A stretch of 64,000 nucleotides of DNA from Methanomicrobiaceae archaeon (GCA_020854755.1 JAHKLN010000011.1:2131-66130), one strand, 5' to 3'; shown: positions 28,198 to 52,504, counted from the first letter of the stretch. Notes: generated from the sequence alone by a model not told the origin. Made by a program: numbers and translations.

Positions 28198-30969
28198 TCA
28201 CGCATGCGTGCTGCCGTCCCTCATGCTTGCCGGCTTGCTGATCGGTACCGAGGCGCCGCGGGTCAGGTTGTCGGCAGCGATCCACTGCGGCATCCCCCTG
28301 TCGGTCGTGGCAACCGCACGGACAAGGATCCCGGTATTTGCGTTCTCTATGTGGTTCTGCCGCAGGACGATCATGGGGCCGAGGACGCCGTAGACCTTGA
28401 TCCCCACGACGTCGGCCTGCCGCAGGTTGTTCACCCGCACGATATTGCTCTCGGCGATCAGGCTCCGGCAGTTGCCGGTAAAGATGCCGTGGGCGGGGTC
28501 GGGGCAGAGCGGTGTTGCCGTGATCTCCACCGTATTGCCCGATATAATCGCCCTGTCGATGAAGTCGTGGTCGTTGCGCGGCGCATTTGCGTGGCTCACC
28601 CCCAGGTGGATGCCCTGGGTCGCCCCCCGGATTGTGTTGTAGAGGATCCGGACGTCGGGCTGCGAAGAGCCTGCGATCAGGATACCCCGGGCGGCGGACG
28701 GCGGGGCGCTCACCGCTTTATCCAGCCAGCCGGCCAGCGAGGGGAACTTCCGCCTGAGATCCTCCTCCCGGAGGACGCGGTCCACGTGTGAGAACACGAA
28801 CGTCTTCGCATCCCCCGGCCGGTCGAATGCAGGAGCGCTCGCTGCTCTCACCAGCGCCTGCAGATCCTTTTCGAGTGCAGGGGCGGTTGCGAGCCGGATG
28901 GTATGGCTGCCGATGGGGATGGCGATATACTTCCCTGCTTCCCGCACGGGCTGGTCGACGACGAGTCCCTTGAGGAGCCGTCCGACGATCTCCTTCCGGA
29001 GCCCCCGGTCCACGCGGATCGCAGCGAGGGGGTCCCTTCTGGGCTCGCCGTGCACCGCGATATCGTTCTGCTCGATCCTAACGCGGCCTGCGTTTGAAAC
29101 CAGGATGCCAATCTGCCGGTTGGCCGGAGAGAGGTCGCACCCCCGGATCCGGACCGACGCGGTGGCTCGGGCGTTCGCTCCCGGGTCGGGGTTCCATACT
29201 CCCAGGCAGGCGATGCCGTCCCGGCGCCCTGCCGCCCCCCGCACCGTCACCCGCTCGACCGTGACGCTGCCGCAGCGGTCGAAGGCGAGCACGCCGTTAA
29301 GCGTCTGCTCTCCCCCTGCCGCCCCCTCTGCTCCGGCGCTGACCATGATGTCCTCCACCACGACGCTCTCCCATCCGGAAAACACCAGCGCCGGCCGGGA
29401 AGCGGGTGCCGCAATCATCGTTCCCTTTCCGCATCCCGACAGACGGAGGTGGCCGCTGCCGGAAAAGACGATCGTATCGTCAATGCTGTATTCTGCCGCC
29501 TGGAGGCAGATCCGGGCGCTCTTTTTCCCCGTCACCCGGGACGGGCAGTTCCTGAGATCCGATGGGAGCACCACCACGGTGCAGCTCCCGTCCCGCCGCC
29601 GGCAGATGGCATCGAGAGCCTCCTGGACCGTTGTTGAGTCCTCCATCTCGCAGGCAGTCCCCGAAAAATCGACGTCTTCTGCAGAAATAGCGGTAGCGGG
29701 AGGAAACAGCCTCCGGCAGTCCTTCACGACCCCGACCGTCCCGCCCGACACACCGAGGATCGCGAGCGGGCAGTAATGGTGCTCCACCCCGTCGGGAGGC
29801 CTGAATGCGGGTTCATCGCCGGCATCGAGCGGCCACTCGATGGCATCGGTGATCGTCCGGGACGGGATCAGCCAGTAATCGCCGGGCGACAGCGCCCCCT
29901 GGCGGAAGGCCACCTGGATGCCCTCCTCGAGATCCATCCACTCCTCGCCGCCGGGCAGCGATCCGACATAATCCCAGAGGCGGACTGTCGGGTTCGTGAA
30001 CGATTCGAGGCGGATGACGGTGTCGCTGCCGGGAGGGCGTATCGTCTCCGGGTCGATGATCAGGTCTTCTCCCTCCAGGCCGATCAATCGGGCGACGACC
30101 CCGGCAATGCCCTTCCGCTCCCGGAGTTCGTCGGTGATCTCTATCCATCGTCCCCCTGCAGTCCGGCAATCCCGGAATGCGTCGAGCACGCGGGAGGGCG
30201 CGTCTTTCAGCGTGATCCTTCCATCTGGCGATGAGGCCGAGCAGCGGGCGGCAAAGGCGGCGTTATCGCGCGACCATTTGATGAGAGGCAGATGTCCGCC
30301 GGAGAACTCCTCGTGCACCTCCACCCGGTAGAGCTGGTTCTCCAGGCGGCGGTACTCCCCCGCAGTGATCTCGCACGGCCCGGCATGTGCCTGGCTGCGG
30401 TTGTATCGCGCCTTCATCATCCCCTGTACGGCCTCGCCCTCGATCGGGTCGCTGCATGATGGCTGTCCGCCGGGGGATCGCCTGGCCCGGATCTCCCAGG
30501 CCACTTCGGTGCGGGTGGCGGTATCCGGGCCGCCGAGCGCCACTTCCCGGATATTCGGGTCCTCGAGCGCCGAGACATGCCGCTCCCACACATCCAGGTA
30601 CACGAAGTGGTATCCGGTCTCGAGCGGCCAGGGAAAGGTCAGCAGGCCTCTCTCTGCCAGCGCGTCCCCGGCCGCCGGGACGATCAGATCCGCTTCGTTC
30701 TCGCAAAGTATCCCGTCCACGTAGTACCGGCCGCGGGTCACCGCGATCCCGCCGCCCTCCGTCGGCCGGATCGCGAACCCCGCGGGCGCATCCCCCTTCG
30801 GCCCCCCGTGGTGGCCGATCAGGTCTCTATCGGCAGAGCGGCGGCGATACCTCTCGATATCCGCCTGCTCGTTCCAGTCCGCATCGAGCTGCACCCTCCC
30901 CTGCTGCATGCGGACACCGGAATAGTGCTTCTCCCGCGAAAATGAATTGCGGGTAAAATCTCCATACAT
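28198..30969 (-). CDS. eCIS terminal gene: DUF6519-like N-terminus + right-handed beta-helix-like C-terminal region (candidate receptor-binding/depolymerase protein)
   Basis: ORF 28198..30987 starts at a GTG; ATG 30969 has GAGGAGG ~8 nt upstream. N-terminus MYGDFTRNSFSREKHYSGVRMQQGRVQLDADWNEQ. The C-terminal third has short repeated units (ILYNTIRGATQGIHLG, ISGNTVEI, AESNIVRVNN, LRQNHIENANTGILV). Confidence 0.7.
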   Translation of the reverse strand: MYGDFTRNSFSREKHYSGVRMQQGRVQLDADWNEQADIERYRRRSADRDLIGHHGGPKGDAPAGFAIRPTEGGGIAVTRGRYYVDGILCENEADLIVPAAGDALAERGLLTFPWPLETGYHFVYLDVWERHVSALEDPNIREVALGGPDTATRTEVAWEIRARRSPGGQPSCSDPIEGEAVQGMMKARYNRSQAHAGPCEITAGEYRRLENQLYRVEVHEEFSGGHLPLIKWSRDNAAFAARCSASSPDGRITLKDAPSRVLDAFRDCRTAGGRWIEITDELRERKGIAGVVARLIGLEGEDLIIDPETIRPPGSDTVIRLESFTNPTVRLWDYVGSLPGGEEWMDLEEGIQVAFRQGALSPGDYWLIPSRTITDAIEWPLDAGDEPAFRPPDGVEHHYCPLAILGVSGGTVGVVKDCRRLFPPATAISAEDVDFSGTACEMEDSTTVQEALDAICRRRDGSCTVVVLPSDLRNCPSRVTGKKSARICLQAAEYSIDDTIVFSGSGHLRLSGCGKGTMIAAPASRPALVFSGWESVVVEDIMVSAGAEGAAGGEQTLNGVLAFDRCGSVTVERVTVRGAAGRRDGIACLGVWNPDPGANARATASVRIRGCDLSPANRQIGILVSNAGRVRIEQNDIAVHGEPRRDPLAAIRVDRGLRKEIVGRLLKGLVVDQPVREAGKYIAIPIGSHTIRLATAPALEKDLQALVRAASAPAFDRPGDAKTFVFSHVDRVLREEDLRRKFPSLAGWLDKAVSAPPSAARGILIAGSSQPDVRILYNTIRGATQGIHLGVSHANAPRNDHDFIDRAIISGNTVEITATPLCPDPAHGIFTGNCRSLIAESNIVRVNNLRQADVVGIKVYGVLGPMIVLRQNHIENANTGILVRAVATTDRGMPQWIAADNLTRGASVPISKPASMRDGSTHA

Positions 30970-30983
30970 GCTGTCAGACCTCC

Positions 30984-33062
30984 TCACGAAACATAGAATA
31001 TCCCCGCTTCAAACCCGAATCTGATATACTCATCAATCACCCTCCGAAGGTTCGATTCCCGGTCGGCCTGGAACAGCCTGTTGAACGCACCCATCTCCGA
31101 GCCGTTCTGTGCCCCTGTCAGGATATCCGGGCTGCATGCCGCGCTCAGCTGGGCATACCCCGGACGGCCGTAGCGCCGCCGGGTGAACGCAGGCCGGCGT
31201 GCGGCCTCCAGGGCTGCGATCTGCTGTTCCGTCCGATCTCCGGCTGTTCTTGCGGCCTCGAGACTCAGGTCGGGCTGACAGCGGTACCGCCGGGGGGTTC
31301 GCGACGCTCCCGGGACATAGCTGAAGCGGATGCAGCCCGCCTGCCTCCGCTCCACGGTGACATCAATGAGGAAGATCGAATCCGACGCCTCCAGTTCCGC
31401 CACGCAGACCTGACCAAAGACCGTGCAGCGCTCCATCACGGCTTTCGGCCCCTCCCCCGACTCCCATCCGGCGACTGCGGGGTACGACCCGTCCTCCGGA
31501 GGCGCATCCAGGATGCTCTCGCTGACGGTGAGGGGGCGTGCATCTGCGGGAATCCGCAGCGGCCCGCAGATGCTCCGGTGTATCGTCACCCCCGGGCGAT
31601 CGGACGCATCCGATGTCTGGAGGCTGTTTGCGCGCGGATAGCGGGGGCTGCCGTCCTGGTTGAGCGACCACCCGGGCACCAGGGTGGTGTGCGTGATCCG
31701 GATATCGGGCGATCCCGCAATCTGCAGCCCGCCCTCCACCAGGAACCCGTCCAGGGAGAAGGAGGATCCCTCCGCTCCCCGGATGACGTTGTTCCCGACA
31801 GGCCGCCAGGTCGGCCGGCAGCCCTCGCCCGCCTCGATCGTCACCGCGGTCTCCGGCGGCAGATCGATATCGAAATTCCCTCCGTAGACGCCGTTATCCT
31901 CGACCCGGATGACGAGCACGCGCCTGCCTTCGGACTCACCGATATCCAGGCATCGGTCCCTCGCCTCCTGCAGGGTCGTGCACGCCCCGTTCTTTGAGAC
32001 CCGGATCACGCATGCATCGGGATCGGCTGCACGCTGCCGGGGATACGGTCCGCCCCCCATATCCGCAGAGAAGCCGTAGCAGTACGAGACCTCCACCTGC
32101 GCCGGCGACCCGCCGTCGGGGAAGGCAAGCCGTCCTCGCTCCGGGTCGATCGCCACCTTCCCGGGCCCGGGCCGCTCCCACGCACTCAGGTCGGCCACGA
32201 CGATTGCCGAGGCGGGAACAAGCCTGCCGTCACGGTAGACGGCAAGGGCGCAGCCCTCCCCGTACAGCCGGGAGCGTCCGGGCCACCCGGTATCGGGCCG
32301 TGAGTCCGAGCGGGCCATAAACTCCCTGAGATCGTCCTCCAGCGCTCCCGGACGGATTGCGCCTGGCACATGCTCCTCACCGGAGATCCGGGAGATATCC
32401 TCCTCCGTGGACGGGAGGGAGAAGAGGGGGAGATCGGTACCGAGCGTGCTGAAGTGGTACAGCCCCCGGGAACCGCGGGCAGGAGCGCGGAGCATCTGGT
32501 AGGGCGTCAGCCGCCAGAGGAAGATGCCGATATGGGGGATGTTGAACCTGCCCCTGCCGCTCCCGATCCGGCGCACCTCGGCCGTGTGCGCCAGACGGCT
32601 AAACGGCGTCCCCAGGAGATCGAGGGCGTTTCGATCCCGCAGATCCGCCGTGCCGCCGCCGTCGCGTACGTGGGCGAGGTGCTGCGTCCTCGCCAGTGCC
32701 TGGAAGAACTCAACGGCATGGGCGGGCCACCGGGTGATGTCGCGGGCCAGCTGCTCCAGCACGGCCGCCGTCCCCTTCCTGCGGCGATAGGCGATGCTGT
32801 TGGCGACGTATGCCCGAAGGCTGCTCCCCTCTCCCGGGGTGAGCAGGCCGGCGCCGAGGGCGTCCCCGATGTAGGGCACCGCCCACTCCGCACAGGTCTC
32901 GATGAAGAGATCGTCGTACAGCTGATCCAGGTTCTCCTCCAGTGCCCGCACCTCATCCGCAATCACCCCGAGCAGCTGCAAAAGCGGCTCCCCGCGTTCG
33001 CCGTCGCGTATGCGGTAGATGGCGGGCAGCAGGGAATAGAGGGTCTCATCATCGAAGTTCAT
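30984..33062 (-). CDS. phage P2 gpI-like tail/baseplate protein
   Basis: N-terminus LYSLLPAIYRIRDGERGEPLLQLLGVIADEVRALEENLDQLYDDLFIETCAEWAVPYIGDALG. ATGA overlap with the upstream gene. Confidence 0.8.
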   Translation of the reverse strand: MNFDDETLYSLLPAIYRIRDGERGEPLLQLLGVIADEVRALEENLDQLYDDLFIETCAEWAVPYIGDALGAGLLTPGEGSSLRAYVANSIAYRRRKGTAAVLEQLARDITRWPAHAVEFFQALARTQHLAHVRDGGGTADLRDRNALDLLGTPFSRLAHTAEVRRIGSGRGRFNIPHIGIFLWRLTPYQMLRAPARGSRGLYHFSTLGTDLPLFSLPSTEEDISRISGEEHVPGAIRPGALEDDLREFMARSDSRPDTGWPGRSRLYGEGCALAVYRDGRLVPASAIVVADLSAWERPGPGKVAIDPERGRLAFPDGGSPAQVEVSYCYGFSADMGGGPYPRQRAADPDACVIRVSKNGACTTLQEARDRCLDIGESEGRRVLVIRVEDNGVYGGNFDIDLPPETAVTIEAGEGCRPTWRPVGNNVIRGAEGSSFSLDGFLVEGGLQIAGSPDIRITHTTLVPGWSLNQDGSPRYPRANSLQTSDASDRPGVTIHRSICGPLRIPADARPLTVSESILDAPPEDGSYPAVAGWESGEGPKAVMERCTVFGQVCVAELEASDSIFLIDVTVERRQAGCIRFSYVPGASRTPRRYRCQPDLSLEAARTAGDRTEQQIAALEAARRPAFTRRRYGRPGYAQLSAACSPDILTGAQNGSEMGAFNRLFQADRESNLRRVIDEYIRFGFEAGIFYVS

Positions 33063-35686
33063 GCGAGCTCACCCCACTCTATCGGCCTCTGATCGATCTG
33101 GAGCAGTTCGGCAGGGGACGCGGCGGCGATATCCTCGCCGGAAGAGGGCTGTCTGGCGACGATCACCGCATTTCGCCCCCGCTGCCCGTCCGACCTGAAG
33201 AGGAGGCCGATCTCGACTGCAGACACACCGGGGACCGACTGGATCACCCCGGTCACCTCGCTGATCGTCACGGGCTGGCCGAACTCGCGGGCCTCGAACG
33301 AGAAGGCCTCCCTGACCGCACGCTCCGCATCGGCCAGGACCTTTGATCGGACGTACGCAGGATCGGTCTTTACGTTCGCGCGTATCTGGAAGAATACCGG
33401 ACGGAACGACAGCACCCGGACCGGGAGGCGGGGGTCGCCGCGGGTGCACAGCGCGGCCTTCAGCCCCTCGCAGGTGGGTCCGCCCGGAGGCACGCTCTCG
33501 CCCCCGGGACCGGCGACGGTGAGGAGGACGGCCCGGGACTGCCCCATCCATCCGTCGACGGCCATGGCTTTTGCGATGCCGGGGAAGGCCCTCGCGTACG
33601 ACGCAAAGTCCCGGATGGAGACGATCCGGTCCAGGGTGAGGACCGCGAGCGGCGAGTTCTGCCGGATCTCGCCGAGTGTCTCCGCATCGGCGCCTCCCGA
33701 TGCAGGCAGGGGGTTGGTGACGGACCGGACGCCCGGAGGCCGCCTGGTGAGCAGGGTGAGGCGTTCCGCCTCGAGGTTTCCGGCACGGCCGCTGCCGGAC
33801 CGGTAGGTGGCGGTGACGTTCTCCCTGCCTGAAGGCAGCCGCGCTCCCCGCTCGCCGTCGCCGAAGGTGACGGTGGTGGTGCCGTCCTCCTCGGTGCGGA
33901 CAGTGTAGCACCGGTCGCCGGGCCCTGCGTCGATCAGGCTCTCTGCTTCGCGCCAGAGCAGATCGTTGACCCGGATCTCAAGGCTCGATTCCAGACTGCC
34001 GGTCTCCCCCGAGGTGACGCAGGTGAGGGGAGCGGCCTTCAGGGAAAACTGCTGGTAGGAGAGCCTCCCGTCGCCGCTCCCGAGGACCTCCTCCCGGGTC
34101 TCGCCGTGCGTTGCCGCCGCCACATTTGCGTTGATCGTCACGCTCTCCCGCCTGTACCTGTGGGATAACGCCGTCGAGAAGGAGAGGAGGGTCAGGCCTT
34201 CTGCGATCTCGACGGAGGCGATCGTTACCGCTTCGTGCGCAGCAGACATCCTGAGATCGATCGGCGCTCCGGACAGCACGACGACCTGACCTTTCTGCAG
34301 CTCCGGATACGCCCCTTCCAGGACGACGGAGTCCCCTTCGACGGGAGTGGTGTCGGCCACCTCCGCAATCTCGAGCTCCTCGCTCTGGGCGGAGATGGCG
34401 GTCTCCCGGATTTTAAAGGAGGGGACGGCCCGATCCAGCCTGAGCCGGGAGACCCTCGCGCTGATCAGGTAGTCGCTCCGCGCCACCTCCTCGTTCTGGA
34501 CGACCGTGCCGAGGACTTCCTCTCCGGTGCGGGTATTTTTGAGAAGGATCCGGCTGCCGGGGAGGATGCCCGGATATGAGGCGTCCAGGTGGATGCAGTC
34601 GTGTACCCCAAAGAGGTTCGCGTCGTCGGCGAGCGTTGCATCGTCCCAGTTGCGATGGCCGCCTCTCCGGTCGTCGGGGAGCATATCATACCGGGGGGCG
34701 TTGTGGCCGAAGGGTGCGGTATGGCAGCGGAAGACAGAGACCCTGACTGTCTGCGCCAGAACGCGCCCGGCCCGCTGCATCTGCATGTTCTCCTTGAGTC
34801 TTTTGAGCGGCCATCCCTGGTGCGCGGCGAATGCAATCAGGTCGGCGGCCTGCCAGCGTTTATCGAGCACAGCGGACTTCACGTGGGCGTCGGTCATGGC
34901 CATGGCCTTCGAGATGAAGGCGGCCGGAGCCGCCGCGATCTGCGCCGTCACCGGGCCCGGGGGCGGTGCGGAGGCGAGGTGGACGCGGACGGTGCCGCGT
35001 GCTGTGTCCGGGAAGACCTCGGTCACCGTCCTGACCCTCTTCTCCTCCGCGCTCTTTGCAAGGAGGATCCGGTCGCCCGGCTTTACGGTGGCGGCGTTCC
35101 CCCGGATAGTGAAGGCCTCCGCGTCCAGGGAGATCTCCTGCGGGAGGTACAGCCGGGGTGAAATCGCGTTCCATTCGGTCCGTGCAGCAATCTCCTCGAC
35201 CGTCTCGAAGGTCAGGGGCGGCCGCCCGTCGAGCGGGATGCTCTGCACCCTCGTGCCCCTGCCGACCGGCACGGCCGCCAGATCGCTCTCCACCGTGAAT
35301 GCGAGGTAGGTGGCGGCAGCGGCGCCGGGCCGCAGCCGGTACCCGGTCAGGGCGGCGATGTGGGAGAGCGAGAGCCGTTCGGTGGCCGTCCGGAGGTAGC
35401 ATTCGTTTGCGATACGCTCCTGGTAAAAGGTCAGGACATCGCCGATCACCGCCCAGGCATCCAGCAGGGCGATGCTGAAGTCGCCGCTCTCCCGCGTCCG
35501 GAGGCCGGCGAGCGCCGGCCGTCTCTCTGTCCCGCTGAGTGCGGCCATCATGCTTGCCCTGAAGCGGGCGTGGTCGCCTGTCCGGTAGGAGATCATCCGG
35601 AGTCCCGGGCGGTTGTATATCCGTACGGGGGTCGCGCGGCGCATCCCCTCACAGCAGCCGCAGAGATCGGATCTTGCGCTCATCAT
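33059..35686 (-). CDS. baseplate-J-like protein, second paralog (Afp12 position)
   Basis: Start at ATG 35686 (ATGA overlap with the upstream stop). LLDAWAVIGDVLTFYQERIANECYLRTATERLSL parallels LVEVLAYLGDHLSYRQDAIATEAYLRTARRRVSV of the upstream protein. Confidence 0.8.
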   Translation of the reverse strand: MMSARSDLCGCCEGMRRATPVRIYNRPGLRMISYRTGDHARFRASMMAALSGTERRPALAGLRTRESGDFSIALLDAWAVIGDVLTFYQERIANECYLRTATERLSLSHIAALTGYRLRPGAAAATYLAFTVESDLAAVPVGRGTRVQSIPLDGRPPLTFETVEEIAARTEWNAISPRLYLPQEISLDAEAFTIRGNAATVKPGDRILLAKSAEEKRVRTVTEVFPDTARGTVRVHLASAPPPGPVTAQIAAAPAAFISKAMAMTDAHVKSAVLDKRWQAADLIAFAAHQGWPLKRLKENMQMQRAGRVLAQTVRVSVFRCHTAPFGHNAPRYDMLPDDRRGGHRNWDDATLADDANLFGVHDCIHLDASYPGILPGSRILLKNTRTGEEVLGTVVQNEEVARSDYLISARVSRLRLDRAVPSFKIRETAISAQSEELEIAEVADTTPVEGDSVVLEGAYPELQKGQVVVLSGAPIDLRMSAAHEAVTIASVEIAEGLTLLSFSTALSHRYRRESVTINANVAAATHGETREEVLGSGDGRLSYQQFSLKAAPLTCVTSGETGSLESSLEIRVNDLLWREAESLIDAGPGDRCYTVRTEEDGTTTVTFGDGERGARLPSGRENVTATYRSGSGRAGNLEAERLTLLTRRPPGVRSVTNPLPASGGADAETLGEIRQNSPLAVLTLDRIVSIRDFASYARAFPGIAKAMAVDGWMGQSRAVLLTVAGPGGESVPPGGPTCEGLKAALCTRGDPRLPVRVLSFRPVFFQIRANVKTDPAYVRSKVLADAERAVREAFSFEAREFGQPVTISEVTGVIQSVPGVSAVEIGLLFRSDGQRGRNAVIVARQPSSGEDIAAASPAELLQIDQRPIEWGELA

Positions 35687-38452: not shown

Positions 38453-38809
38453 CTACACCTCCCGGGCAAACCGGGCGGATTGACGCTCCTGGCTCCGGCG
38501 CACCACGTACTGCACCACGACCACGAGTGCCGCTTCCCGGCACTCCACGCTCACCTCCTCGACCTGGATCAGGTCCGAAAGCCACTTCTGCAGCGCACCC
38601 TGGACCATGAACTGCATTGCCGCGGAGGTCTCGTCACCTGCGGGGGCAAAGACAAGGTGCATCAGGCCGCAGCCGAAATCAGGGCGGTTTACCCGCTCTC
38701 CGGGCGAGGTGAAGAGCACCTGCTCGATCAGGTCGCGTATGTGTTCGTCCTCTCCTGCCGTTTTGGTCCCGCCCCGGGAGTCGAAGTGCAGGGGGAATTT
38801 GACCTGCAT
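38453..38809 (-). CDS. GPW/gp25-family baseplate wedge protein
   Basis: 118 aa. IRDLIEQVLFTSPGERVNRPDFGCGL is the characteristic gp25 block. Confidence 0.9.
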   Translation of the reverse strand: MQVKFPLHFDSRGGTKTAGEDEHIRDLIEQVLFTSPGERVNRPDFGCGLMHLVFAPAGDETSAAMQFMVQGALQKWLSDLIQVEEVSVECREAALVVVVQYVVRRSQERQSARFAREV

Positions 38810-42947: not shown

Positions 42948-44327
42948 TCAGCGTGCGTACCTGCTGTTGATCATCCTGCGCAGTCCTCGCTCGCCGCCCA
43001 GCCGGAACGTGGGATCTTGCTCGTAGAGGAACCGGAAGATGCGTTCCCGTGCACGCTGCTCGACCTGCTGGTTTAACAGCGCCGTGCGCTTCTGGAGTTC
43101 GGGTCCCCAGCTGTCAATAGGCTGGTAGAGTAGGACTTCCGGTGCCATGCGGCGATACTGGTCGCGAAACTCCGTGCGCCGCAGAAACTCAATCTCCATC
43201 TGAATGGCCCGCCGAACGCTCTGTTCGGACGGCGTCAGCTCGCGGCGAATGGCGCGGCGCAGGTGCTCGAAGGCGGTGCAGCTGATCCCGAAACACGTCC
43301 GCTCTTCTCTGGGCCGTCTGTCTTCCGGTGCCGCACTGATGGTTGCTTGCGGGCGCTGCCGCCGGGGCGCCGGCAATGGCGTGGGGGCAGGCTTCGGGGT
43401 GGGCGCCGGTGGCGGTGCCATGCGGTGGGCGACGACGCTGCGGCGGTCCGCACGCGCGCCGGGCGTTGCACCGTGCTTGAAGATGCCGGCGATCCGGGCC
43501 GGAAAGACACTCGCGTTCTCCAGCACGCTTCTCGCTCTGAGCGCCCGCAGGCAGGAGAGATGTTCGTTGAAATCGGCCGGCCCGTCTTCGCTTGCAAACC
43601 CGTGAATCGTCACGGAGTCGCCGGGCTGAAGCCGACCGGCAAAACTGCGCAGCCGTGCTTCTTCGCCGGCGAGAAAATCGTCGCAGTTCACGGCGAACCG
43701 GAAGAGCTCCTCGCTGCTTGTACCGACGTCGGTGATGTCGCCGCACATGCCCTCACAGCCCGCGACGGGGCGCATGCCGGATGGCCTGTAGCATGCCCGC
43801 TGGAGCGGCGCCGGGGCATTGCCGCACCGCCCGGCACTGGAGCGGCCATCGGCCGACCCCGACGCGATCTGATCGGCCTCGTGCTCGTACCGGCTCTCGC
43901 ACGGCTCTATCCTGAGGTCTCCTGGCGTGCGTACGCCGCCCTGCTGCACCACGTGAGCCAGTTCGTGCATCAGCAGCGCTCTTCCTTCCGCCATATCCGG
44001 CGCAAATCGGCCGGCGTCAAAGACGATGTCGCGGCCGACCGTATACGCCAGCGCGTTGACCGCCCGCGCCGATTCCGCCGCCTTTGCATCCGCGTGCACC
44101 CGCACCCGGGAAAAGTCGTGGCCGAACCGGGGCTCCATATCGGCGCGGGTGGCCGGGTCGAGAGGCCGCCCCGTGGAGCGCAGCACTTCATGCACGATCG
44201 GCGGCGCCATCTCCTGCGTGGACCTCAGAGCCGAACGCTGCAGGGCCGGCATCTTTTGAGAACAATCGCATATCCGCTGCAGGACTCCGCCGGCCTGTTC
44301 TGCCTGAGCAGCAGCCATCTGTCTCAT
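42948..44327 (-). CDS. DUF4157 (HExxH zincin-like) protein with OmpA-C-like domain and basic helical tail; candidate eCIS payload
   Basis: PIVHEVLRSTGRPLDPATRADMEPRFGHDFSRVRVHADAKAAESARAVNALAYTVGRDIVF...LLMHELAHVVQQ. The middle region VTIHGFASEDGPADFNEHLSCLRALRARSVL is OmpA/MotB-like. A PAPTPKPAPTPLPAP linker follows. Confidence 0.85.
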   Translation of the reverse strand: MRQMAAAQAEQAGGVLQRICDCSQKMPALQRSALRSTQEMAPPIVHEVLRSTGRPLDPATRADMEPRFGHDFSRVRVHADAKAAESARAVNALAYTVGRDIVFDAGRFAPDMAEGRALLMHELAHVVQQGGVRTPGDLRIEPCESRYEHEADQIASGSADGRSSAGRCGNAPAPLQRACYRPSGMRPVAGCEGMCGDITDVGTSSEELFRFAVNCDDFLAGEEARLRSFAGRLQPGDSVTIHGFASEDGPADFNEHLSCLRALRARSVLENASVFPARIAGIFKHGATPGARADRRSVVAHRMAPPPAPTPKPAPTPLPAPRRQRPQATISAAPEDRRPREERTCFGISCTAFEHLRRAIRRELTPSEQSVRRAIQMEIEFLRRTEFRDQYRRMAPEVLLYQPIDSWGPELQKRTALLNQQVEQRARERIFRFLYEQDPTFRLGGERGLRRMINSRYAR

Positions 44328-44581
44328 CTCCCTATCCCTCCGTATACTGCCTGTGCGATTCGGGTGCCGAGATTGCAGGGGTCGTTTCCGCCCTCCAGCC
44401 GGATCGTCCCCCCGGGCACGCGTGGCCGTGCGCCCCCCGGGGCGAGATCGGCGGAGAGCCCGCCGGCGGCCAGCATCCGCGCCAGCTTGCCCTCCACCGC
44501 CGCCTGCAGGAGCGGGCGCTCGCTGTAAGGGATATCGATCCCGTCCAGCACCAGGCGCTCGATATGTACCGTGATCTTCAT
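44324..44581 (-). CDS. small conserved eCIS-associated protein (85 aa)
   Basis: Start at ATG 44581 (MKITVHIERLVLDGIDIPY...). ATGA overlaps on both sides, with the ATPase stop and the DUF4157 start. Confidence 0.6.
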   Translation of the reverse strand: MKITVHIERLVLDGIDIPYSERPLLQAAVEGKLARMLAAGGLSADLAPGGARPRVPGGTIRLEGGNDPCNLGTRIAQAVYGGIGR

Positions 44582-46629
44582 GCGTCTCCTCCTTTCTTCG
44601 CCGCCTCCGTCCACCGGAAGTCGGCCTCGTTGATCGGGCGCTCCATCTTCCGGAACTCGGCCCTTGCCGCCTGAAGCACGAGCGGCATGGTCACCGGGGT
44701 GCCTGCCTCTGCCGCAAGGAAGGCGGCGTTGAGGGCGGTGTTGTGGATGCTCCCACCGGTCAGGTTCAGCCGGGCCAGCCGGTCGATCTCCAGCCCCTCG
44801 GTCTCTGTCTCGGGTGGAAAGACCCTCTCCCAGATGCGCCTGCGTTCGGGCTGCCCCGGGAAGGGGAAGGCGACGATGAACCTGAGCCTGCGGAGGAAGG
44901 CGGGGTCGAGCGATGACTTCATGTTCGTCGCCAGGATCGCAAGCCCCCTATACGCCTCGATCCGCTGCAGCAGGTAGTTGATCTCGATATTCGCATAGCG
45001 GTCGTGGCTGTCCTTCACCTCGCTGCGTTTGCCGAAGAGGGCATCGGCTTCGTCGAAGAAGAGGATCGCCCCTCCGTCCTCCGCCGCGTCGAAGAGCCGC
45101 CGCAGGTTCTTCTCCGTCTCACCGATATACTTGTTGACCACGGCGGAGAGGTCAATGCGGTACAGATCAAGGCCGAGATCGTTGGCGATCACCTCTGCGG
45201 CCATGGTCTTGCCGGTACCGCTCTCCCCTGCAAAGAGTGCGCTGATCCCGAGCCCGCGGTTCATCCGGTGCCGAAATCCCCACTCGTCGTAGACAGTGCT
45301 TCGCCGCCTCACCTGGTCGGCGATCCGGCGGAGCAGTGACTGTTGCTCCTCGGGAAGGACGAGATCCTCCCATCGGGCCTTCGGATCGATCCGCCGTGCA
45401 AGCTGCTCTATCCCCGGCCGGGTTCTCTCCAGGCATGCCGACCACAGCCCGTCATGGAGGCCGGTATCGCCGTCGTCCGCCCCGTCGAGCACCGGGCCTG
45501 CGATCTGCCGGATCGCCTGAAGGTTCAGGTTGAACTGGCCGGCGAGGAGTGCCGGGCTCTCTTTGCCCCTCTCTCCGAGCGCCGCAGCCCACGCAGCCTT
45601 CTGTTCGGCCGGTGTCGGTCGCTCGATGTCCAGGATCAGGGTGGTGCGATCGAGATCCGGCCTGACCTCCCGGGTGTCGATCAGGGCAGGGCCTCCGTAC
45701 AGCAGGAGAAAACGTTCGAGCGTAGCGTTCTGTGCCTCGCCGGCCGTTCCCGGTTCACCCTCCAGGCCGGCGTCGAGGTAGAGTGCTATCGGCACAAGCA
45801 GGCTCTCGCGCTGCCAGAGACGGGCCAGCATATCGAGGTCGGCCGCCTGGGAAGGCAGCAATGCAACGGGGATACGGGTGATCCGGATGCCGGCGCTCAA
45901 TACGGCGTGGTGCGTCACGGCCTGCTTGCTCACCGTATCAGGACCGACGAGCTGGACAAGAGTCGGCCTTCCGGAATCGCCCTCCCCCTGCAGATGCCGT
46001 CGAATGCGTTCGGCTGCGGCGAACTGGCTCGGGGAGAGCGCTTCCGGTTCGGCGTATGCCGTATCGAACGGGACGGTGAACGGGATCAGCCGGTTGTCGA
46101 GCCTGTTATGCCCCTTGATGAAATGCACAACCCGCTCGTCGGCCTGCAGGGCGCTGGCGGTCAGGGGAAGGGCCGCCTGCTGGTGGCATTCGATCAGGCG
46201 GTAGTAGCGCAGCGGGCGTTCCGGCAGGAGCGCATCCCAGGAACGATCCTCAAACAACGCGAGCGCCAGGGCAAACGTCGGGTAGGGCCTTCCGGGGTCG
46301 TCCTGCGCCCGGGCGCAGAGCCCGGAAATCCTGGTATCGAGCTCCATGGCGGCGCAGAGCAGGAGCACCTCCTGCTCGAACCGGGAGAGCCCGAACTGCC
46401 GGGCAAGGAGGGTCAGCGCCGGAGAAGGAAGCGCCGCTTCGGCGGCGGCCATGGCTTCCGCGGCACGGGCGATTGCTTCGCCCGAAGGGAGGCGCCCTTC
46501 GGGCGATCCCCCTGCCTGCGGTTCGTCCGGGCCGCCGGCTGCGAACCGCTGCAGGAGGAGGCGAAGCCAGGCTAATGCCGCGGCGAGGTACTCCTCGTTG
46601 TTCTCTTCCCACTCTTCGTATGGACTCAT
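44578..46629 (-). CDS. AAA+ ATPase (Afp15-like)
   Basis: Walker A GESGTGKTMAAE, Walker B ILFFDEADALF, sensor LAILATN, and a ~400-aa non-ATPase N-terminal region. Confidence 0.95.
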   Translation of the reverse strand: MSPYEEWEENNEEYLAAALAWLRLLLQRFAAGGPDEPQAGGSPEGRLPSGEAIARAAEAMAAAEAALPSPALTLLARQFGLSRFEQEVLLLCAAMELDTRISGLCARAQDDPGRPYPTFALALALFEDRSWDALLPERPLRYYRLIECHQQAALPLTASALQADERVVHFIKGHNRLDNRLIPFTVPFDTAYAEPEALSPSQFAAAERIRRHLQGEGDSGRPTLVQLVGPDTVSKQAVTHHAVLSAGIRITRIPVALLPSQAADLDMLARLWQRESLLVPIALYLDAGLEGEPGTAGEAQNATLERFLLLYGGPALIDTREVRPDLDRTTLILDIERPTPAEQKAAWAAALGERGKESPALLAGQFNLNLQAIRQIAGPVLDGADDGDTGLHDGLWSACLERTRPGIEQLARRIDPKARWEDLVLPEEQQSLLRRIADQVRRRSTVYDEWGFRHRMNRGLGISALFAGESGTGKTMAAEVIANDLGLDLYRIDLSAVVNKYIGETEKNLRRLFDAAEDGGAILFFDEADALFGKRSEVKDSHDRYANIEINYLLQRIEAYRGLAILATNMKSSLDPAFLRRLRFIVAFPFPGQPERRRIWERVFPPETETEGLEIDRLARLNLTGGSIHNTALNAAFLAAEAGTPVTMPLVLQAARAEFRKMERPINEADFRWTEAAKKGGDA

Positions 46630-47849
46630 GGCAGGATCGTGATCGTCTGGTCTTCTGCAAACCCGGGCGGCGACTGCGAGAAGTCCACCGGGTTGCTGTC
46701 CACGCCGTCCACCCGTACCCGGACGACATACTCCCCGGGCTCGAGGTCGCTTGCACGCACCTGGAGGATCGTGGGCTTCCCTTCATCGGGGGGGGTTGTG
46801 ACGGCCTGGATCTCCGTCTCGCGATCCCCGAGGAGCACCATGACCCGCTGCCCCTCCCGCACCCGGGGAGCGCACTCCAGGGTGAGGAGGAGGTCGCCGC
46901 TGTCCGCCTGAACCGGCGTGATCCCCGATGCGCGGGGGGCGAGGGCAAAGGAGACCTCGTTCGTTGTCCTGGCGGGAAGATCCGGCGCCCGGAGGCGAAG
47001 GGCCAGGGTATAGAACCCTGCCGGCCAGCGTTCGAGCGCAAGGGGGTCCGTGCCGGTATCCGGGATCCTCAAGAAGAGGGTACCGGGCTGATTTCCCGGG
47101 AGAGGCGCGAGCGTATGCGCTTCCCGAAGAAGGGGCGATCGGATCTCCGCCGTGAGCCCTTCGCCGTCCAGATGCTCTCCCGAAACAACCAGATCGCCAC
47201 CGAGCTCCACCCCGAACGCGCCGTTTTTGGGGGCAGCTCCCCGGAGGGCGGGCGTGCCGGTGGGCAGGAGGAAGACGCCCCTGCCGTCCCGGCCGAGCTT
47301 CAGCACCGGCAGCGGCATCTTCGCAGGCCGGTCGCTCTCTATCAGGACGACGTGTACCTGGTATGCCGCGGAGATGCGGTACTGCGTCTGGAACGCGGTC
47401 CAGAGCCGGGAGATCTCGTCCAGAGACAGGGACAGGGGCGTGATGCGCACCCGCTCCGCCTGCTCGTGCAGGTCGGCGCCCGTCACGGCATGCCGGAGCC
47501 TGCCCGGGCTCAGGGAGGGGGTGTCGTGCAGGATCCGCATGGCGTGGCCCAGGAGCTGGTGGGCCATCAGATCGTCGTTGTCCCTGCCGTATGCCGTGAT
47601 CAGGTAATGGAGGTCGAGGGCTAGGGGAGGGTGTCCCCCCTCTCCCGGCAGGGCCATGTTCCGCCATGCGGCGTTGATCCCTGTCTGGTAGAGGAAGATA
47701 TTCACCTGGTTTGCACTGTTGCTGCCCCGTGCCTTGTCCGGCGGCTGGACCGTGACGATCGTGTCCGCCAGGGACGGATCCGCTGCGACCTCCATCAGGA
47801 GGCCCTGCAGGGCGGCGGTCACCGCCGCAATGGAACGGAAATTGCTCAT
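46626..47849 (-). CDS. DUF4255 / Pvc16-Afp16-like tail cap (terminator) protein
   Basis: MSNFRSIAAVTAALQGLLMEV...VNIFLYQTGINAAWRN is the DUF4255-type N-terminus. ATGA overlaps at both ends. Confidence 0.85.
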   Translation of the reverse strand: MSNFRSIAAVTAALQGLLMEVAADPSLADTIVTVQPPDKARGSNSANQVNIFLYQTGINAAWRNMALPGEGGHPPLALDLHYLITAYGRDNDDLMAHQLLGHAMRILHDTPSLSPGRLRHAVTGADLHEQAERVRITPLSLSLDEISRLWTAFQTQYRISAAYQVHVVLIESDRPAKMPLPVLKLGRDGRGVFLLPTGTPALRGAAPKNGAFGVELGGDLVVSGEHLDGEGLTAEIRSPLLREAHTLAPLPGNQPGTLFLRIPDTGTDPLALERWPAGFYTLALRLRAPDLPARTTNEVSFALAPRASGITPVQADSGDLLLTLECAPRVREGQRVMVLLGDRETEIQAVTTPPDEGKPTILQVRASDLEPGEYVVRVRVDGVDSNPVDFSQSPPGFAEDQTITILP

Positions 47850-48841
47850 CTTCGCATCTCTCCATCGCGTCTCTTCAGGTACTCGTCGAGACGGGTGGCC
47901 TCGTGTGCGTCCCGCTCCCGCCGCTGGACGGCAGGAGGCTGCACGGCCCGCACCTCGATCCTGCCGATGGTCACCTGGACGGCGGGCGGCTGCTGCGCCA
48001 TCCCGCCGTCCTCCGGGTATCCGCCAACACTGCCGGAACGCTCCCTCGGACGCACGTTTCTGCCGGGTATGGGCCTCAGTTCCCCGTTCTGCCGCACCTT
48101 TGGCCTGTGCCCGGCAGCCCCGGGAACGCGTATCGGATCGGGCTCTGCTGCCCCCGAAGGTCGGCGGAGTGGTTTGCCCGGATCCTGCTCGTATCTCATC
48201 GTCTCCAGAGGGATATCCGTTCCCGGTGCGGGGGTATGCGGACGCCCGGGGATCTCCTCCCCCCGGGATGGTGGCGGAACGGGGATGCCGGCCGGCGTCT
48301 TCCCATCGGCTGCGGACCGGACGGGAGACTGGGCCGGGGGAGGGATCTCATCCGGCGCAGCCGCCCGGGGAAGCCCCCTGTCCGGGTCGCTCTCTTCAGC
48401 GGCAGGCGGCCTGCGAGGCGTGCTGCCGATCTCCTCCGGTATATCTGCATTCTCCCCGCCGGGGGCGCGATCTCTGGCCGGTCCGGGTGGTCTCCCCGCA
48501 GGGTGCATCTCTTCGGCTCGCTTCCCCGTGCGGGTGTTTATCTCTTCTCTTCCCCGTGCGGGTGTCCGGGCGACGGCGGCGGGAGGGTGGTGTCTGGGCG
48601 GCGCGGGCCGCTGTACCGCCGTCTCGGGAGCGGAGGAGGTCTCCTGGGGGTCTTCTCCGCCTCCTCTCTTTATCCGCGGCCTCTCACCGGTATGCGGCAG
48701 CATGCCGGGGGGCATCTCCTCCTCGGCTTCGCCCCGGTGCACTTCACGCGCCGCGGGTTCAAAAAACGAAGGCAGGCGCGGGTAGACCGCCCCTGCCCTG
48801 CCGGAATGCCGGGCAATCAGTGCATGAATAAATCCGCTCAT
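47846..48841 (-). CDS. Pro/Arg/Gly-rich low-complexity protein in the tape-measure (Afp14) position
   Basis: Start at ATG 48841, a 1-nt overlap with the upstream stop. Ordered-looking ends MSGFIHALIARHSG... and ...VQVTIGRIEVRAVQPP...LDEYLKRR flank ~250 aa of P/R/G/E-rich sequence. Confidence 0.6.
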   Translation of the reverse strand: MSGFIHALIARHSGRAGAVYPRLPSFFEPAAREVHRGEAEEEMPPGMLPHTGERPRIKRGGGEDPQETSSAPETAVQRPAPPRHHPPAAVARTPARGREEINTRTGKRAEEMHPAGRPPGPARDRAPGGENADIPEEIGSTPRRPPAAEESDPDRGLPRAAAPDEIPPPAQSPVRSAADGKTPAGIPVPPPSRGEEIPGRPHTPAPGTDIPLETMRYEQDPGKPLRRPSGAAEPDPIRVPGAAGHRPKVRQNGELRPIPGRNVRPRERSGSVGGYPEDGGMAQQPPAVQVTIGRIEVRAVQPPAVQRRERDAHEATRLDEYLKRRDGEMRR

Positions 48842-49563
48842 CAGTCGACCAGCTCCAGGTATCTCTCCCGCCTCCAGGCGCTCATGGCCAGTATCTCGGT
48901 TTCGGACCACCCGTACGCAGAGGCAAGGATGTGCACTTCATGCAGGGTACGCCTCGCAAGGGACGCCACCTCCGCCCAGAGATACGAGACGATATCGAAG
49001 GCCGCCTGCCATTCGTAGGTGCACGAGCAACACGTCAGAACGAGCGTGATATCCGCCTGCGGGTCTGCCTCCCTCATCTCCTCGCCGACGGCGTCGACGA
49101 TGCCCGGAGGCAGGTGCGAGACGGCAACCGGCTCCCCGGCAAGACAGGACCGCACCACGCATCGATGAAGGAGCGAAGCCTCGGGGTCCTGGGCATCGAA
49201 AACCGCCAGGAGATCGCCGGCTGTCGGCAGACGGAACTCTACCGTATACCCGTCCCGGATCAGCGAGAGCCTGCCGTCCGCGGGTGGCGCTGCCTCGATC
49301 CGCACGTCCCCGGCTAGAAACGCGAGCTCCAGCTCTTCGCCGCATGCGGGGCAGGCCGTACGGGCGGCAAATCCCGGGCCGAAGATCGCTTCACGGAGGT
49401 CAAGGAGCAGCCGGTCCCGCTCGCCGATGCTCATGCACGCCAGATCGCCCGGGCTGGTATGGGGATATGCTGCGGCAAGAAGCGCAAGCGCACGTTCGGC
49501 AGGCGGCCGATTCTGCCCCCGCTCCCATACCCCGAGCACATCTGCTGCGGTAAGGCCCTGCAT
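48841..49563 (-). CDS. conserved hypothetical with two Cys pairs (zinc-ribbon-like), Afp6 position
   Basis: Start at ATG 49563 (MQGLTAADVLGVWERGQ...). Contains CPACGEELE and CCSCTYEW. Confidence 0.65.
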   Translation of the reverse strand: MQGLTAADVLGVWERGQNRPPAERALALLAAAYPHTSPGDLACMSIGERDRLLLDLREAIFGPGFAARTACPACGEELELAFLAGDVRIEAAPPADGRLSLIRDGYTVEFRLPTAGDLLAVFDAQDPEASLLHRCVVRSCLAGEPVAVSHLPPGIVDAVGEEMREADPQADITLVLTCCSCTYEWQAAFDIVSYLWAEVASLARRTLHEVHILASAYGWSETEILAMSAWRRERYLELVD

Positions 49564-49568: not shown

Positions 49569-50096
49569 CTAGCCGGGCGGTTCGGTGAAGGTGGGCTCGG
49601 TCGGTTCGGTCACCGCATAATCGCGCTCCCAGCCCTCGTTCTCCAGTTTCAACGTCTGGATTGCGACTGCATTGGCATTGGCGTCCAGGTCGGGAATGGC
49701 CTGGTACTCCGAGACCCAGCACCGGTATACTTTATACGCGATCGCAAGCTGCCCTGCCTCGTTGTATATCTCGATGATGATATCCTTGCGGAAATCCTTC
49801 AGCGAGACCTCGGAGCCGAGGCCGGAGCCGTAGTTCCAGACCTTGTTTGCCCATTGCTCAAACTCGACGTCATGGGTGACGCCCCGTTCAAGGGTGATCG
49901 GCTCATACTTCGTCCGGCCCGGCGATTTTCTCGAGGAGGAGGGATCTCCCCCTTCCCGGTGCTCCACCACCTCGGTGGTCCGCTTGAGCGCACCGATCTT
50001 CGATACTCCCGCAACGTACCGGCCGTCCCATTTCACGCGAAACTTGAAGTTCTTATAGGGATCGAACCTCTGCGGATTGACGCTGAAATTGACCAT
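49569..50096 (-). CDS. contractile-tail tube protein (T4 gp19-like)
   Basis: MVNFSVNPQRFDPYKNFKFRVKWDGRYVAGVSKIGALKRTTEVVEHREGGDPSSSRKSPGRTKYEPITLERGVTHD. GGAGG lies 10 nt upstream. Confidence 0.95.
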   Translation of the reverse strand: MVNFSVNPQRFDPYKNFKFRVKWDGRYVAGVSKIGALKRTTEVVEHREGGDPSSSRKSPGRTKYEPITLERGVTHDVEFEQWANKVWNYGSGLGSEVSLKDFRKDIIIEIYNEAGQLAIAYKVYRCWVSEYQAIPDLDANANAVAIQTLKLENEGWERDYAVTEPTEPTFTEPPG

Positions 50097-50109
50097 ACTG
50101 ACTCGCCTC

Positions 50110-51723
<1,614 letters not shown>

Positions 51724-52504
51724 CAATTTTCTCCTTTCTTTTTAGTAGTTCAGACCTCGAATATGCAGGGGTCTTCCTGAATCGCCATCCTGGCGGCAGA
51801 TATCGGGACGGCCGCGGCGCTGTCCACGGCATCGGATCAAAAAGAGCATGGCAGGTGCCTGATCGAACAGCACAACGCCTCCGGAGCTCGATAGTACATG
51901 CGGTGACCCGGGTAAGACCGGTTCATCTCCTCTGCCATCGGTTGTGCATGTACGATGCCCCCCGTCCATGTCCGCGGCGGTAAGGAGTGGTTGGGTTAAA
52001 CCCGCGTCTTCTGGCTGTACAATCAACGCAATGTCCGTTTCCCCTGTGTTAATCAATACTGCGATTATACCGCAGGCGTCCACACTCCAATCTCCGGCAG
52101 ATGAAATCGCCGGACAACCCCGGAACCCTGTCGTTGAATGCCCGATCGGTCTGTTTCGGCGTGGATCCCTACACACATCACTATACAGTGCCCTTAAAAA
52201 AACCTTTTGGTTATCAGAAATACCGCTGATATCCTGAATTACTCTTTGCACAAAAATTTCTCCGCACCCTCTCTCCGGGCGCCCGTTCAGGAGGCAGTCA
52301 TGCCGGAAGGGATCAGAGTCCCTGACCGGGCCGATGTGAACCCCCGGTGCGACCTCTGCCCGGGAGGTGGCGGATCAACCGGGGAAAATGCCGCGATCTC
52401 CTCAAACACGCCGGTGTAACCCGAACAGTGAGAACAGGCGTACCCCCCGGGGGCATCGGTGGACGGATCGTATCCGGCGGATTTGGATGTGCCGGATAGG
52501 TGAG

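Follow-up and report, generated by a model that had tools for sequence, protein, structure and literature searches.

The stretch of DNA analysed in this work, 64,000 nucleotides long and called the window below, belongs to a 66,415-bp contig of a metagenome-assembled genome (MAG) which is named 'Methanomicrobiaceae archaeon' at NCBI (GCA_020854755.1, JAHKLN010000011.1:2131-66130, locus tags KO206_). Between positions 28198 and 51726 the window carries 19 open reading frames (ORFs), all on the minus strand and none with an internal stop. The best explanation of these genes as a whole is that they probably form a complete and intact contractile injection system (CIS) of the extracellular CIS (eCIS)/phage-like protein translocation structure (PLTS) superfamily, located in a Methanomicrobiaceae chromosome. 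The lengths of the 19 ORFs match those of their orthologues, and the gene spacing is operon-like, with 4-nucleotide overlaps of the ATGA type or gaps of at most 14 nucleotides. The sole exception is a 297-nucleotide gap (41716-42012), the only long intergenic gap of the array, which divides it into a sheath-to-cargo block and a block running from the second tube gene to the fibre gene. The gap contains TATA-like stretches (CTTTATTC / GATATACA) upstream of the start of the second tube gene, and it is possible that these AT-rich boxes, at 41725-41770, belong to an internal promoter; no gene is called in the gap in independent assemblies. About 40 nucleotides past the stop codon of the fibre gene there is an oligo-T run, TTATTTTTTGG, at 28150-28165 of the minus strand, which is compatible with an archaeal terminator. 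The proteins were compared with Pfam and NCBIfam (TIGR) family models, which confirmed most labels at or above their thresholds, and with PHROG families and PDB sequences; five labels that were weak on the single sequence were retested on orthologue sets from 80 related loci.

The first gene of the array codes for the contractile sheath (50110-51723, 537 amino acids, Cis2/Afp2-like; Pfam Phage_sheath_1 8.9e-10, Phage_sheath_1C 6.3e-8). Its likeliest start is the ATG at 51723, with a TTG upstream at 51726. Among PDB sequences the sheath matched Cis2 of Streptomyces coelicolor over its full length (8bky, 5e-75) and Cis2 of Halogeometricum borinquense (9ezm, 2e-66); with the Afp and PVC structures the C-terminal domain alone aligned (1e-38 to 1e-47). 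The inner tube protein (Cis1, T4 gp19-like, 49569-50096, 175 amino acids; Pfam Phage_T4_gp19 1.7e-47) is 76-85 % identical to the tube proteins of bacterial loci. It is followed by a protein with four cysteines (48841-49563, 240 amino acids) related to T4 gp51, a family concerned with baseplate-hub assembly (T4_baseplate PF12322 1.8e-8; PHROG_150 'baseplate hub' 2e-5), whose orthologues occupy the same slot in at least 12 bacterial loci. The next gene encodes a proline-rich protein of 331 amino acids (47846-48841), for which no family match was found in Pfam, NCBIfam or PHROG. It ends with the motif VTIGRIEVRA ... LDEYLKRR, and in 12 bacterial loci the ORF between the gp51-like and the cap genes is likewise proline-rich and has the same end motif, [VI]x[VI][ST]IGR[IVL][ED][VI]RA followed about 25 residues on by L[ST]L[DE][DE]YL[RK]. 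Judged by this motif the proline-rich proteins are a conserved family, and the protein is a candidate for the tape measure, or else for a protein of the tube lumen; surveys reported the tape measure to be missing from lineage II systems. The tail terminator or cap (Cis16, DUF4255 = Pvc16_N, 46626-47849, 407 amino acids; Pvc16_N 2.2e-49) and the AAA+ ATPase with an N-terminal winged helix (Cis15/Afp15-like, 44578-46629, 683 amino acids; AAA 3.5e-26, winged-helix domain PF22977 6.3e-23) are encoded by adjacent genes with a 4-nucleotide overlap. Downstream of the ATPase lies a gene for a small conserved protein of 85 amino acids (44324-44581), without family match, for which tblastn found orthologues in 15 bacterial loci (29-52 % identity, generally at the same position; 17 loci in total if the same-species assemblies L001 and L002 are included).

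The sheath-to-cargo block ends with two genes for DUF4157 proteins, which we regard as cargo candidates, DUF4157 being a marker of eCIS cargo (Geller 2021); DUF4157 toxins of Halogeometricum are secreted in a sheath-dependent manner (Zachs et al. 2024, PMC11566945). The first (42948-44327, 459 amino acids) consists of a DUF4157 domain with the HExxH motif (Pfam eCIS_core 1.7e-31), an OmpA_C-type domain, a proline-rich linker and a helical C-terminal domain. The Pfam match to OmpA (5.9e-5) stayed under the family cut-off, and the presence of an OmpA-C/Pal-type peptidoglycan-binding fold was confirmed by an AlphaFold2 (AF2) model, in which residues ~195-305 superimposed on the OprF, Pal and OmpA-C domains (E 2e-5, TM-score normalised to the target 0.67-0.79, root-mean-square deviation 2.4-2.8 A). 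Residues 14-300 are 40-51 % identical to bacterial DUF4157-OmpA proteins, and the C-terminus is divergent. The second candidate (42013-42939, 308 amino acids; eCIS_core 1.8e-31, DUF6973 1.9e-19) has a full-length orthologue, 58 % identical, in a Udaeobacter CIS locus. DUF6973 is an uncharacterised helical, cysteine-rich domain, widespread among DUF4157 proteins; in relatives it sometimes follows pretoxin-HINT domains and is sometimes fused with an OmpA-like domain in one chain. DUF4157-OmpA and DUF4157-DUF6973 architectures are both found in bacterial loci, and in some relatives (proteins P0322, P0326, P0332, P0333) DUF4157, OmpA-like and DUF6973 modules are joined in a single protein; in the window they are split over two adjacent genes. 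The AF2 model of the second candidate (predicted local distance difference test score 82) had a single and weak fold match in the PDB, the Bacteroides type VI secretion system (T6SS) effector BteO (E 4e-3, TM-score 0.32), which acts by binding OmpA-C domains; this resemblance is only a lead. The fused chains of the relatives, together with the weak BteO likeness of the DUF6973 model, raise the possibility that the two cargo proteins interact. Another peptidoglycan-directed module, a YkuD (L,D-transpeptidase) domain, occurs in a DUF4157 cargo protein encoded at 1638-3410 of L091, one of the two closest non-self loci by Cis11a (55 % identity). No immunity gene was recognised, and the 297-nucleotide gap behind the second cargo gene holds no credible ORF. 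An ORF at 41737-41997 was considered as an immunity gene and rejected, its sequence being implausible and not called in other assemblies.

The other block encodes the baseplate, the spike and the fibre. It begins with a second tube-family protein (41065-41715, 216 amino acids), an initiator or adaptor of Cis5/7 type, for which the single sequence gave a CIS_tube match of 1.5e-3, whereas all 21 orthologues matched CIS_tube (best 5.5e-9); the match of the orthologue profile to the PDB was marginal (0.014). The small LysM/gpX-like baseplate protein (40756-41055, 99 amino acids) matched PHROG baseplate families (1.4e-7, 2.6e-6) and NCBIfam LysM (4.6e-3), and Phage_tail_X was found in 3 of 19 orthologues, a weak but consistent basis for this putative label. 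The hub protein (39612-40751, 379 amino acids) would be the gp27/gpD-like half of a split VgrG (Afp8): its orthologue profile matched VgrG 9rce_F (4.9e-8) and 9gtr_q (0.008), and Phage_GPD was seen in 2 of 21 orthologues, whereas the single sequence found no match among species-representative genomes. PDB searches with the single sequences of the hub, gpI-like, second tube and LysM-like proteins gave no match either. The spike (39130-39615, 161 amino acids) combines a gp5/gpV OB-fold with a beta-helix (Phage_base_V 5.6e-21), and is followed by a PAAR-like spike tip (38810-39133, 107 amino acids; DUF4280 2.7e-4 for the single sequence, found in 21 of 21 orthologues with a best value of 4.3e-8) and by the gp25-like baseplate wedge protein or sheath initiator (Cis9, 38453-38809, 118 amino acids; GPW_gp25 9.7e-18). 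There are two baseplate J/gp6-like proteins, Cis11a (Afp11, 35683-38451, 922 amino acids; TIGR02243 2.6e-89) and Cis11b (33059-35686, 875 amino acids; TIGR02243 1.2e-73, Baseplate_J 6e-12); the Cis11a profile matched the S. coelicolor baseplate J-like chain 9gtp_1K (6e-27) and T4 gp6 (3.5e-10). The wedge protein resembling P2 gpI and Mu gp48 (30984-33062, 692 amino acids; tail_TIGR02242 2.2e-4) is a Cis12 candidate, a weak assignment because it is based on weak family matches (Mu_Gp48 in 8 and Tail_P2_I in 2 of 21 orthologues; no PDB match of the orthologue profile), and its position is kept in 69 of 80 bacterial loci. The last gene encodes the tail fibre or receptor-binding protein (28198-30969, 923 amino acids), which has a DUF6519 domain (1.5e-43) and a C-terminal right-handed beta-helix (Beta_helix 4.2e-8). 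DUF6519 is eBAP5, one of five N-terminal baseplate-anchoring domains of eCIS tail fibres, in which beta-helix ends are frequent (PMC12923769). Across the loci the first ~575 residues of the fibre are conserved and the C-terminal tip is variable, and therefore the protein fits a receptor-binding role.

The hallmarks of the superfamily are present together: a sheath with a gp19-like tube, a core of gp25, Baseplate_J and VgrG type, a Pvc16_N cap accompanied by an AAA+ ATPase, and DUF4157 proteins. The original prediction had described an eCIS/PLTS array of 19 uninterrupted genes, and this description was borne out: all ORFs were found, and the family models of sheath, tube, cap, ATPase, DUF4157, spike, gp25 and J proteins passed. 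Its tube-adaptor, PAAR-like and hub labels gained support from the orthologues, and what it had called a Cys-pair protein matched the gp51 family. For the gpI-like and LysM-like labels the matches are weak, those of the LysM-like protein being consistent, and the name 'beta-helix protein' was correct as far as it went, the protein also having the DUF6519 anchor domain. As claimed, genes for virion components (capsid, portal, terminase), for integrase and for replication are missing among the called genes of the window, and so are those of the T6SS membrane complex; the Pfam and NCBIfam matches in the cluster and its flanks included no TssJLM, ClpV, Hcp or TssA family.

The host context is genuinely archaeal, a Methanomicrobiales chromosome. 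Many proteins share 85-92 % identity with a DeoC-family aldolase encoded at 1094-1918, and all of those that are named come from Methanomicrobiales (Methanoculleus sp. SDB, Methanoregulaceae, Methanoculleaceae), and the flanks contain families typical of archaea (DUF2115, DUF1673, TrmB, CbiZ). The left junction, comprising the fibre gene, a DUF488 fragment, a MASE3-PAS kinase and a cardiolipin synthase gene, is repeated on an independent contig (L003, JAQUSI010000011). Three more sources contain the same proteins, namely a hydrocarbon metagenome, MAG GCA_028715245.1 and JGI sample 3300009388. Proteins of the sheath-to-hub half, 98-100 % identical, were recovered from two other assemblies, in which the sheath variant is 99 % identical to that of the window; exact look-up gave a match for the tube protein and none for the sheath. 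The GC content of the cluster (64-69 %) is above that of the left flank (54-60 %), while the right flank is similar to the cluster in GC content and in GC content at third codon positions (GC3), and the GC3 of the CIS genes overlaps that of host genes. Relative synonymous codon usage (RSCU) of the CIS genes correlated with that of the two flanks at 0.955 and 0.981, to be compared with 0.946 between the flanks themselves and with at most 0.92 between the CIS genes and the loci of bacterial relatives. On these comparisons we rejected the GC content as a sign of recent transfer. The window contains no tRNA gene and no Rfam match, and with no tRNA gene there is no tRNA attachment site.

The relatives of the cluster tell of another origin. 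The best non-self homologues of Cis11a are 44-55 % identical; those with a name all come from bacteria, among them Chloroflexi, Pyrinomonadaceae, Caldilinea, Nitrotoga and Methylobacter. An alignment scan with Cis11a over one genome per prokaryotic species yielded at least 597 confirmed relatives, of which the best 80 are all bacterial, the top one being the Chloroflexota MAG locus L007 (52 %). The ten genes of the baseplate module (second tube, LysM-like, hub, spike, tip, gp25, the two J, gpI-like and DUF6519 fibre) stand in the same order on a single strand in 78 of 78 loci, and all ten are present in 65. The bacterial relatives and the host-like codon usage together point to an old, maintained transfer from bacteria, and they indicate that the cluster is archaeal by residence and bacterial by ancestry, an old, ameliorated inter-domain acquisition; the label 'archaeal, methanogen-like' in the original prediction fits the flanking genes and the codon usage and not the ancestry of the genes. 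The donor phylum would have to be deduced from the nearest relatives. According to the literature the haloarchaeal CIS are nearest to those of Bacillota, for which reason the methanogen CIS looks like a separate acquisition.

Within the superfamily, according to Chen et al. 2019, two afp11 genes and an afp8 divided between a gp27 and a gp5 ORF occur in subtypes IIa and IIc, which are the subtypes with archaeal loci, and divergent afp12/afp13 occur in IIa. The window has two afp11 genes, a split afp8, afp10 (the DUF4280 tip) and divergent afp12 (gpI-like) and afp13 (DUF6519 fibre). Because all these organisational features are present, the cluster fits subtype IIa of dbeCIS lineage II, a membership based on gene organisation. 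One bacterial counterpart, L007 (Chloroflexota MAG LacPavin_0920_WC70_MAG_64_18), has the genes from cap to fibre in identical order with 35-66 % identity; what sets the window apart from the bacterial lineage II loci is the archaeal host, the Methanomicrobiales codons, and the divergence of the first cargo protein's C-terminus and of the fibre tip. With the lineage I systems (Afp, PVC, AlgoCIS) it shares the sheath, the gp19-like tube, gp25, J, spike, PAAR, Pvc16 cap and AAA+ ATPase, whereas in those systems the sheath has several paralogues, VgrG is contiguous, the fibres are Afp13 and the tape measure is Afp14. That homologous loci occur in some Archaea, as had been stated, agrees with published reports: PLTS/CIS clusters are known from Methanomethylovorans hollandica, Methanothrix and all groups of anaerobic methanotrophic archaea (ANME), and were called horizontally acquired (Sarris 2014; Chadwick 2022, PMC9012536; for ANME-3, PMC12180501). 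Compared by description, these clusters are like ours in being phage-tail-like and in residing in methane-metabolising Euryarchaeota, their hosts being Methanosarcinales and ANME and not Methanomicrobiaceae. The kind is already known, and the window represents a further member in another methanogen order.

If the system works like its relatives, the baseplate would be built in the cytoplasm from the gp27-like hub, the gp5-like spike, the DUF4280 tip, gp25, the two J-like proteins, the gpI-like protein and the DUF6519 fibres. Tube and sheath would then polymerise on the baseplate, with the proline-rich protein possibly setting the length; the Pvc16 cap would close the tail, the AAA+ ATPase may aid assembly or cargo loading, and the two DUF4157-tagged proteins would be loaded as cargo. 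Contact of the beta-helix fibres with the surface of the target would trigger contraction of the sheath, driving tube, spike and cargo into the neighbouring cell.

To our knowledge Methanomicrobiales do not make peptidoglycan; their envelopes have protein S-layers. The combination of a cargo with a predicted OmpA-type peptidoglycan-binding domain, a host without peptidoglycan and the lack of a recognised immunity gene in the window suggests that the targets of the CIS are bacteria. One can go further and picture the methanogen injecting cell-wall-directed cargo into bacteria of a hydrocarbon-degrading consortium, with the DUF6973 partner perhaps acting on OmpA-like domains as BteO does, a scenario that we put forward as tentative and would ourselves doubt in its full form. 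If the anti-bacterial reading is true, the archaeon would need no immunity gene, since it has no peptidoglycan.

It must be noted that several points weigh against the view of the cluster as a complete, working injection system with bacterial targets. The tape-measure assignment of the proline-rich protein is weak, as are the gpI-like and LysM-like assignments. Archaeal relatives may have been missed, the all-bacterial result referring to the best 80 of at least 597 relatives, and the assignment to subtype IIa uses the gene organisation and no phylogeny with reference sequences. The organism is known solely from MAGs and its CIS from genes alone. The cargo may have been passively inherited from the bacterial donor, in which case it would be uninformative on present targets. 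The nearest characterised relatives are cytoplasmic (S. coelicolor) or membrane-bound (H. borinquense) and not extracellular, and neither lysis or release genes nor a membrane anchor were recognised in the window. As there is no recognised release gene and no recognised anchor, neither release nor anchoring is positively supported. How the particle would be deployed has accordingly to be weighed from several sides.

A particle released into the medium, that is a true eCIS, is favoured by the variable tip of the fibre and by the lack of an anchor, and we give this mode somewhat less than an even chance; release has been demonstrated for the lineage I systems (Afp, PVC, AlgoCIS) only.

The particle could instead remain bound to the cell, as in the contact-dependent 'archaeal T6SS' of H. 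borinquense, which is attached to the membrane and fires across the S-layer into a neighbour in contact with it. The original prediction held that no archaeal particle, target or payload had been characterised, a statement outdated by the work on this system: a clade IIa CIS, bound to the cytoplasmic membrane and contact-dependent, with DUF4157 toxins, immunity genes and a putative anchor with six transmembrane (TM) segments (Hbor_38620) encoded beside the cluster (Zachs et al. 2024, PMC11566945). The absence of TssJ/L/M genes, proposed earlier as a test against a T6SS, does not exclude a T6SS-like mode either, because the archaeal T6SS-like system has none. The membrane-attached mode is favoured by its being the only one characterised for an archaeal CIS so far and by the lack of release genes or a lysis cassette. 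The two systems moreover share an archaeal host, the lineage II organisation of IIa type with two Cis11 and a split Afp8, DUF4157 genes placed between the sheath/tube and the baseplate blocks, and the lack of a tape measure (cis14) recognisable by homology, and the window sheath matches 9EZM in both its N- and C-terminal domains. They differ in several respects: the window cluster is compact and single whereas that of H. borinquense consists of two subclusters 8.7 kb apart, it is nearest to Chloroflexota and other bacteria and not to Bacillota, it has a LysM/gpX-like gene and the proline-rich candidate tape measure, and it lacks an adjoining 6-TM anchor gene and recognised toxin-immunity pairs. 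No credible TM segment was found in the 19 proteins or their immediate neighbours, the only hydrophobic windows being single ones in the C-terminus of the sheath, in the hub and in an unassigned ORF at 51742-52251. The sole unassigned 6-TM ORF of the window (3646-4530, plus strand, 294 amino acids, no family) lies 24 kb from the cluster; it is of the same gross architecture class as the putative haloarchaeal anchor, and none of the 80 related loci has an equivalent. Neighbouring ORFs considered as membrane anchors were rejected, since they have no homologues in related loci, and multi-TM ORFs elsewhere in the window lack counterparts there as well. A different mode was proposed for haloarchaeal clusters without an anchor, and the CIS clusters of methanogens and ANME were named as unexplored (Zachs et al. 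2024, PMC11566945). With the window CIS being closer to bacterial than to haloarchaeal loci, hence separately acquired, we consider membrane attachment possible and on balance rather unlikely.

That the cluster is not functional at all appears unlikely, though not negligibly so. A specific form of this view, in which the genes are the silent remnant of a horizontal transfer, intact by chance or because they arrived recently, and unused, would fit the bacterial ancestry and the variable surroundings, in which a decayed CIS copy is found together with pseudogene fragments and toxin-antitoxin pairs. This decayed second copy (24337-25026, minus strand), situated between the genes for cardiolipin synthase and the MASE3-PAS kinase, retains residues ~300-537 of a sheath (the 3' part of the gene) and residues 1-~95 of a tube protein (the 5' part). 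It is 85-87 % identical in nucleotide sequence to 49813-50802 and disrupted by several frameshifts and deletions; it is also present in the independent assemblies L003-L006. The 19 ORFs, by comparison, are undisrupted over 23.5 kb, and because the neighbouring relic is frameshifted while the full copy stays intact, the latter appears to be under selection. In codon usage the CIS genes cannot be told apart from host genes, near-identical sheath-to-hub proteins occur in two more assemblies and the same proteins in four sources. We judge the silent remnant to be improbable. The same two observations, intact genes beside a decayed paralogue and host-adapted codons, would be indirect evidence for expression of the CIS, which had been predicted as probable.

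Another possibility is that the system acts inside its producer, as in S. coelicolor, where a cytoplasmic CIS fires in stressed cells and brings about regulated cell death. The top solved structure for the window sheath (8BKY) and the top match of Cis11a (9gtp) are both from S. coelicolor, and neither system has an Afp13-type fibre or a canonical Afp14. In the Streptomyces system, of subtype IId, there is only one afp11, afp8 is contiguous, the effectors have one TM segment each and a membrane protein, CisA, is used (Casu et al. 2023, PMC10066040), whereas the window has two afp11, a split afp8, soluble DUF4157 cargo without TM effectors, the DUF6519 fibre and no CisA-like gene. The fibre, with its variable beta-helix tip, suggests that foreign surfaces are recognised, and peptidoglycan-binding cargo would have no obvious substrate in an archaeon lacking peptidoglycan. 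It is the cargo type above all that speaks against a purely intracellular role, which we regard as quite improbable.

An artefact of assembly or binning, by which a bacterial CIS was wrongly joined to archaeal DNA, might be suspected from the MAG source, the difference in GC content between cluster and left flank, and the bacterial affiliation of all named relatives. Such a chimera is very improbable, because the GC3 of the cluster overlaps that of the host and its RSCU fits the flanks better than the bacterial relatives; furthermore, archaeal genes flank the cluster on both sides on one contig, an independent assembly shows the left junction again, the right flank is similar in GC content, and a diverged relic of CIS genes is embedded in the archaeal flank. 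Finally, a prophage tail module or R-type tailocin, to which the descent of the structural genes from myovirus tails and the pipeline annotation 'phage tail protein' might point, can practically be dismissed, as the 64 kb contain no capsid, portal, terminase, integrase or replication genes, the Pvc16 cap, the AAA+ ATPase and the DUF4157 proteins are CIS markers and not phage genes, and Cis11a has at least 597 relatives in genomes and none in 2.9 million viral contigs.

To a specialist the existence of such a cluster is unsurprising; the leads are its adapted state, the wall-directed cargo and the tape-measure family. The window offers a clean, apparently complete methanogen CIS in a Methanomicrobiales genome, with clear bacterial ancestry, adapted codons and cargo which seems to point at bacterial walls, and it would represent a second, independent inter-domain acquisition of the CIS machine beside the haloarchaeal one. 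If active, the system bears on the dealings of methanogens with the bacteria they need in syntrophic consortia. Should the anti-bacterial reading be true, the CIS would be the first injection system directed from an archaeon at bacteria, giving methanogens a means of policing or exploiting their partners in syntrophy. Direct testing is limited by the uncultured host. The C-terminal motif of the proline-rich proteins may help to find the 'missing' tape measure of lineage II.

The CIS island lies between two direct repeats that involve a DUF488 gene and are about 26.2 kb apart. The right repeat (53435-54382, plus strand) contains the intact gene (53554-53931); the left one (27196-27755, plus strand), where a DUF488 fragment is called in L003, consists of a truncated 5' part of the gene and its upstream DNA. 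It is 89 % identical overall to 53435-53740 (95-98 % in ungapped blocks), and then 65 % identical to 54065-54382. The relic CIS copy and the repeats could have arisen by partial duplication, and equally an older CIS copy could have been replaced by recombination. Between the sheath gene and the right repeat, the stretch 51742-53434 contains only fragments, such as a partial NIR_SIR 4Fe-4S domain at 52509-53045; the assemblies call differing short ORFs there, and the stretch looks like pseudogene debris.

Two paralogous PAS sensor histidine kinase genes, at 25199-27118 and 57180-58544 (both plus strand), flank the island, and their 3' ends are 70 % identical at the DNA level. For the right one an exact look-up gave no match. 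The left kinase has a 6-TM MASE3 sensor domain, and about 1 kb separates the end of its gene from the last CIS gene; a regulatory link between the PAS kinases and the CIS is possible. The right kinase gene is part of what appears to be a clock-like operon in this methanogen (54728-58544, plus strand), composed of kaiC (NCBIfam KaiC 3.7e-214), two kaiB genes and the PAS histidine kinase gene. Further out, at ~12-22 kb in the left flank, there is a dense group of toxin-antitoxin-type genes (HEPN/MNT pairs, HepT-like, PIN), whose density points to a variable region of genomic-island type. An NHL/ScyF-like beta-propeller repeat protein with 141-nucleotide tandem repeats of 74-85 % identity is encoded at 10720-11634 (minus strand), and the archaeal flank on the right carries the gene of a full-length serpin at 58616-59908 (plus strand; Pfam Serpin 1e-117).

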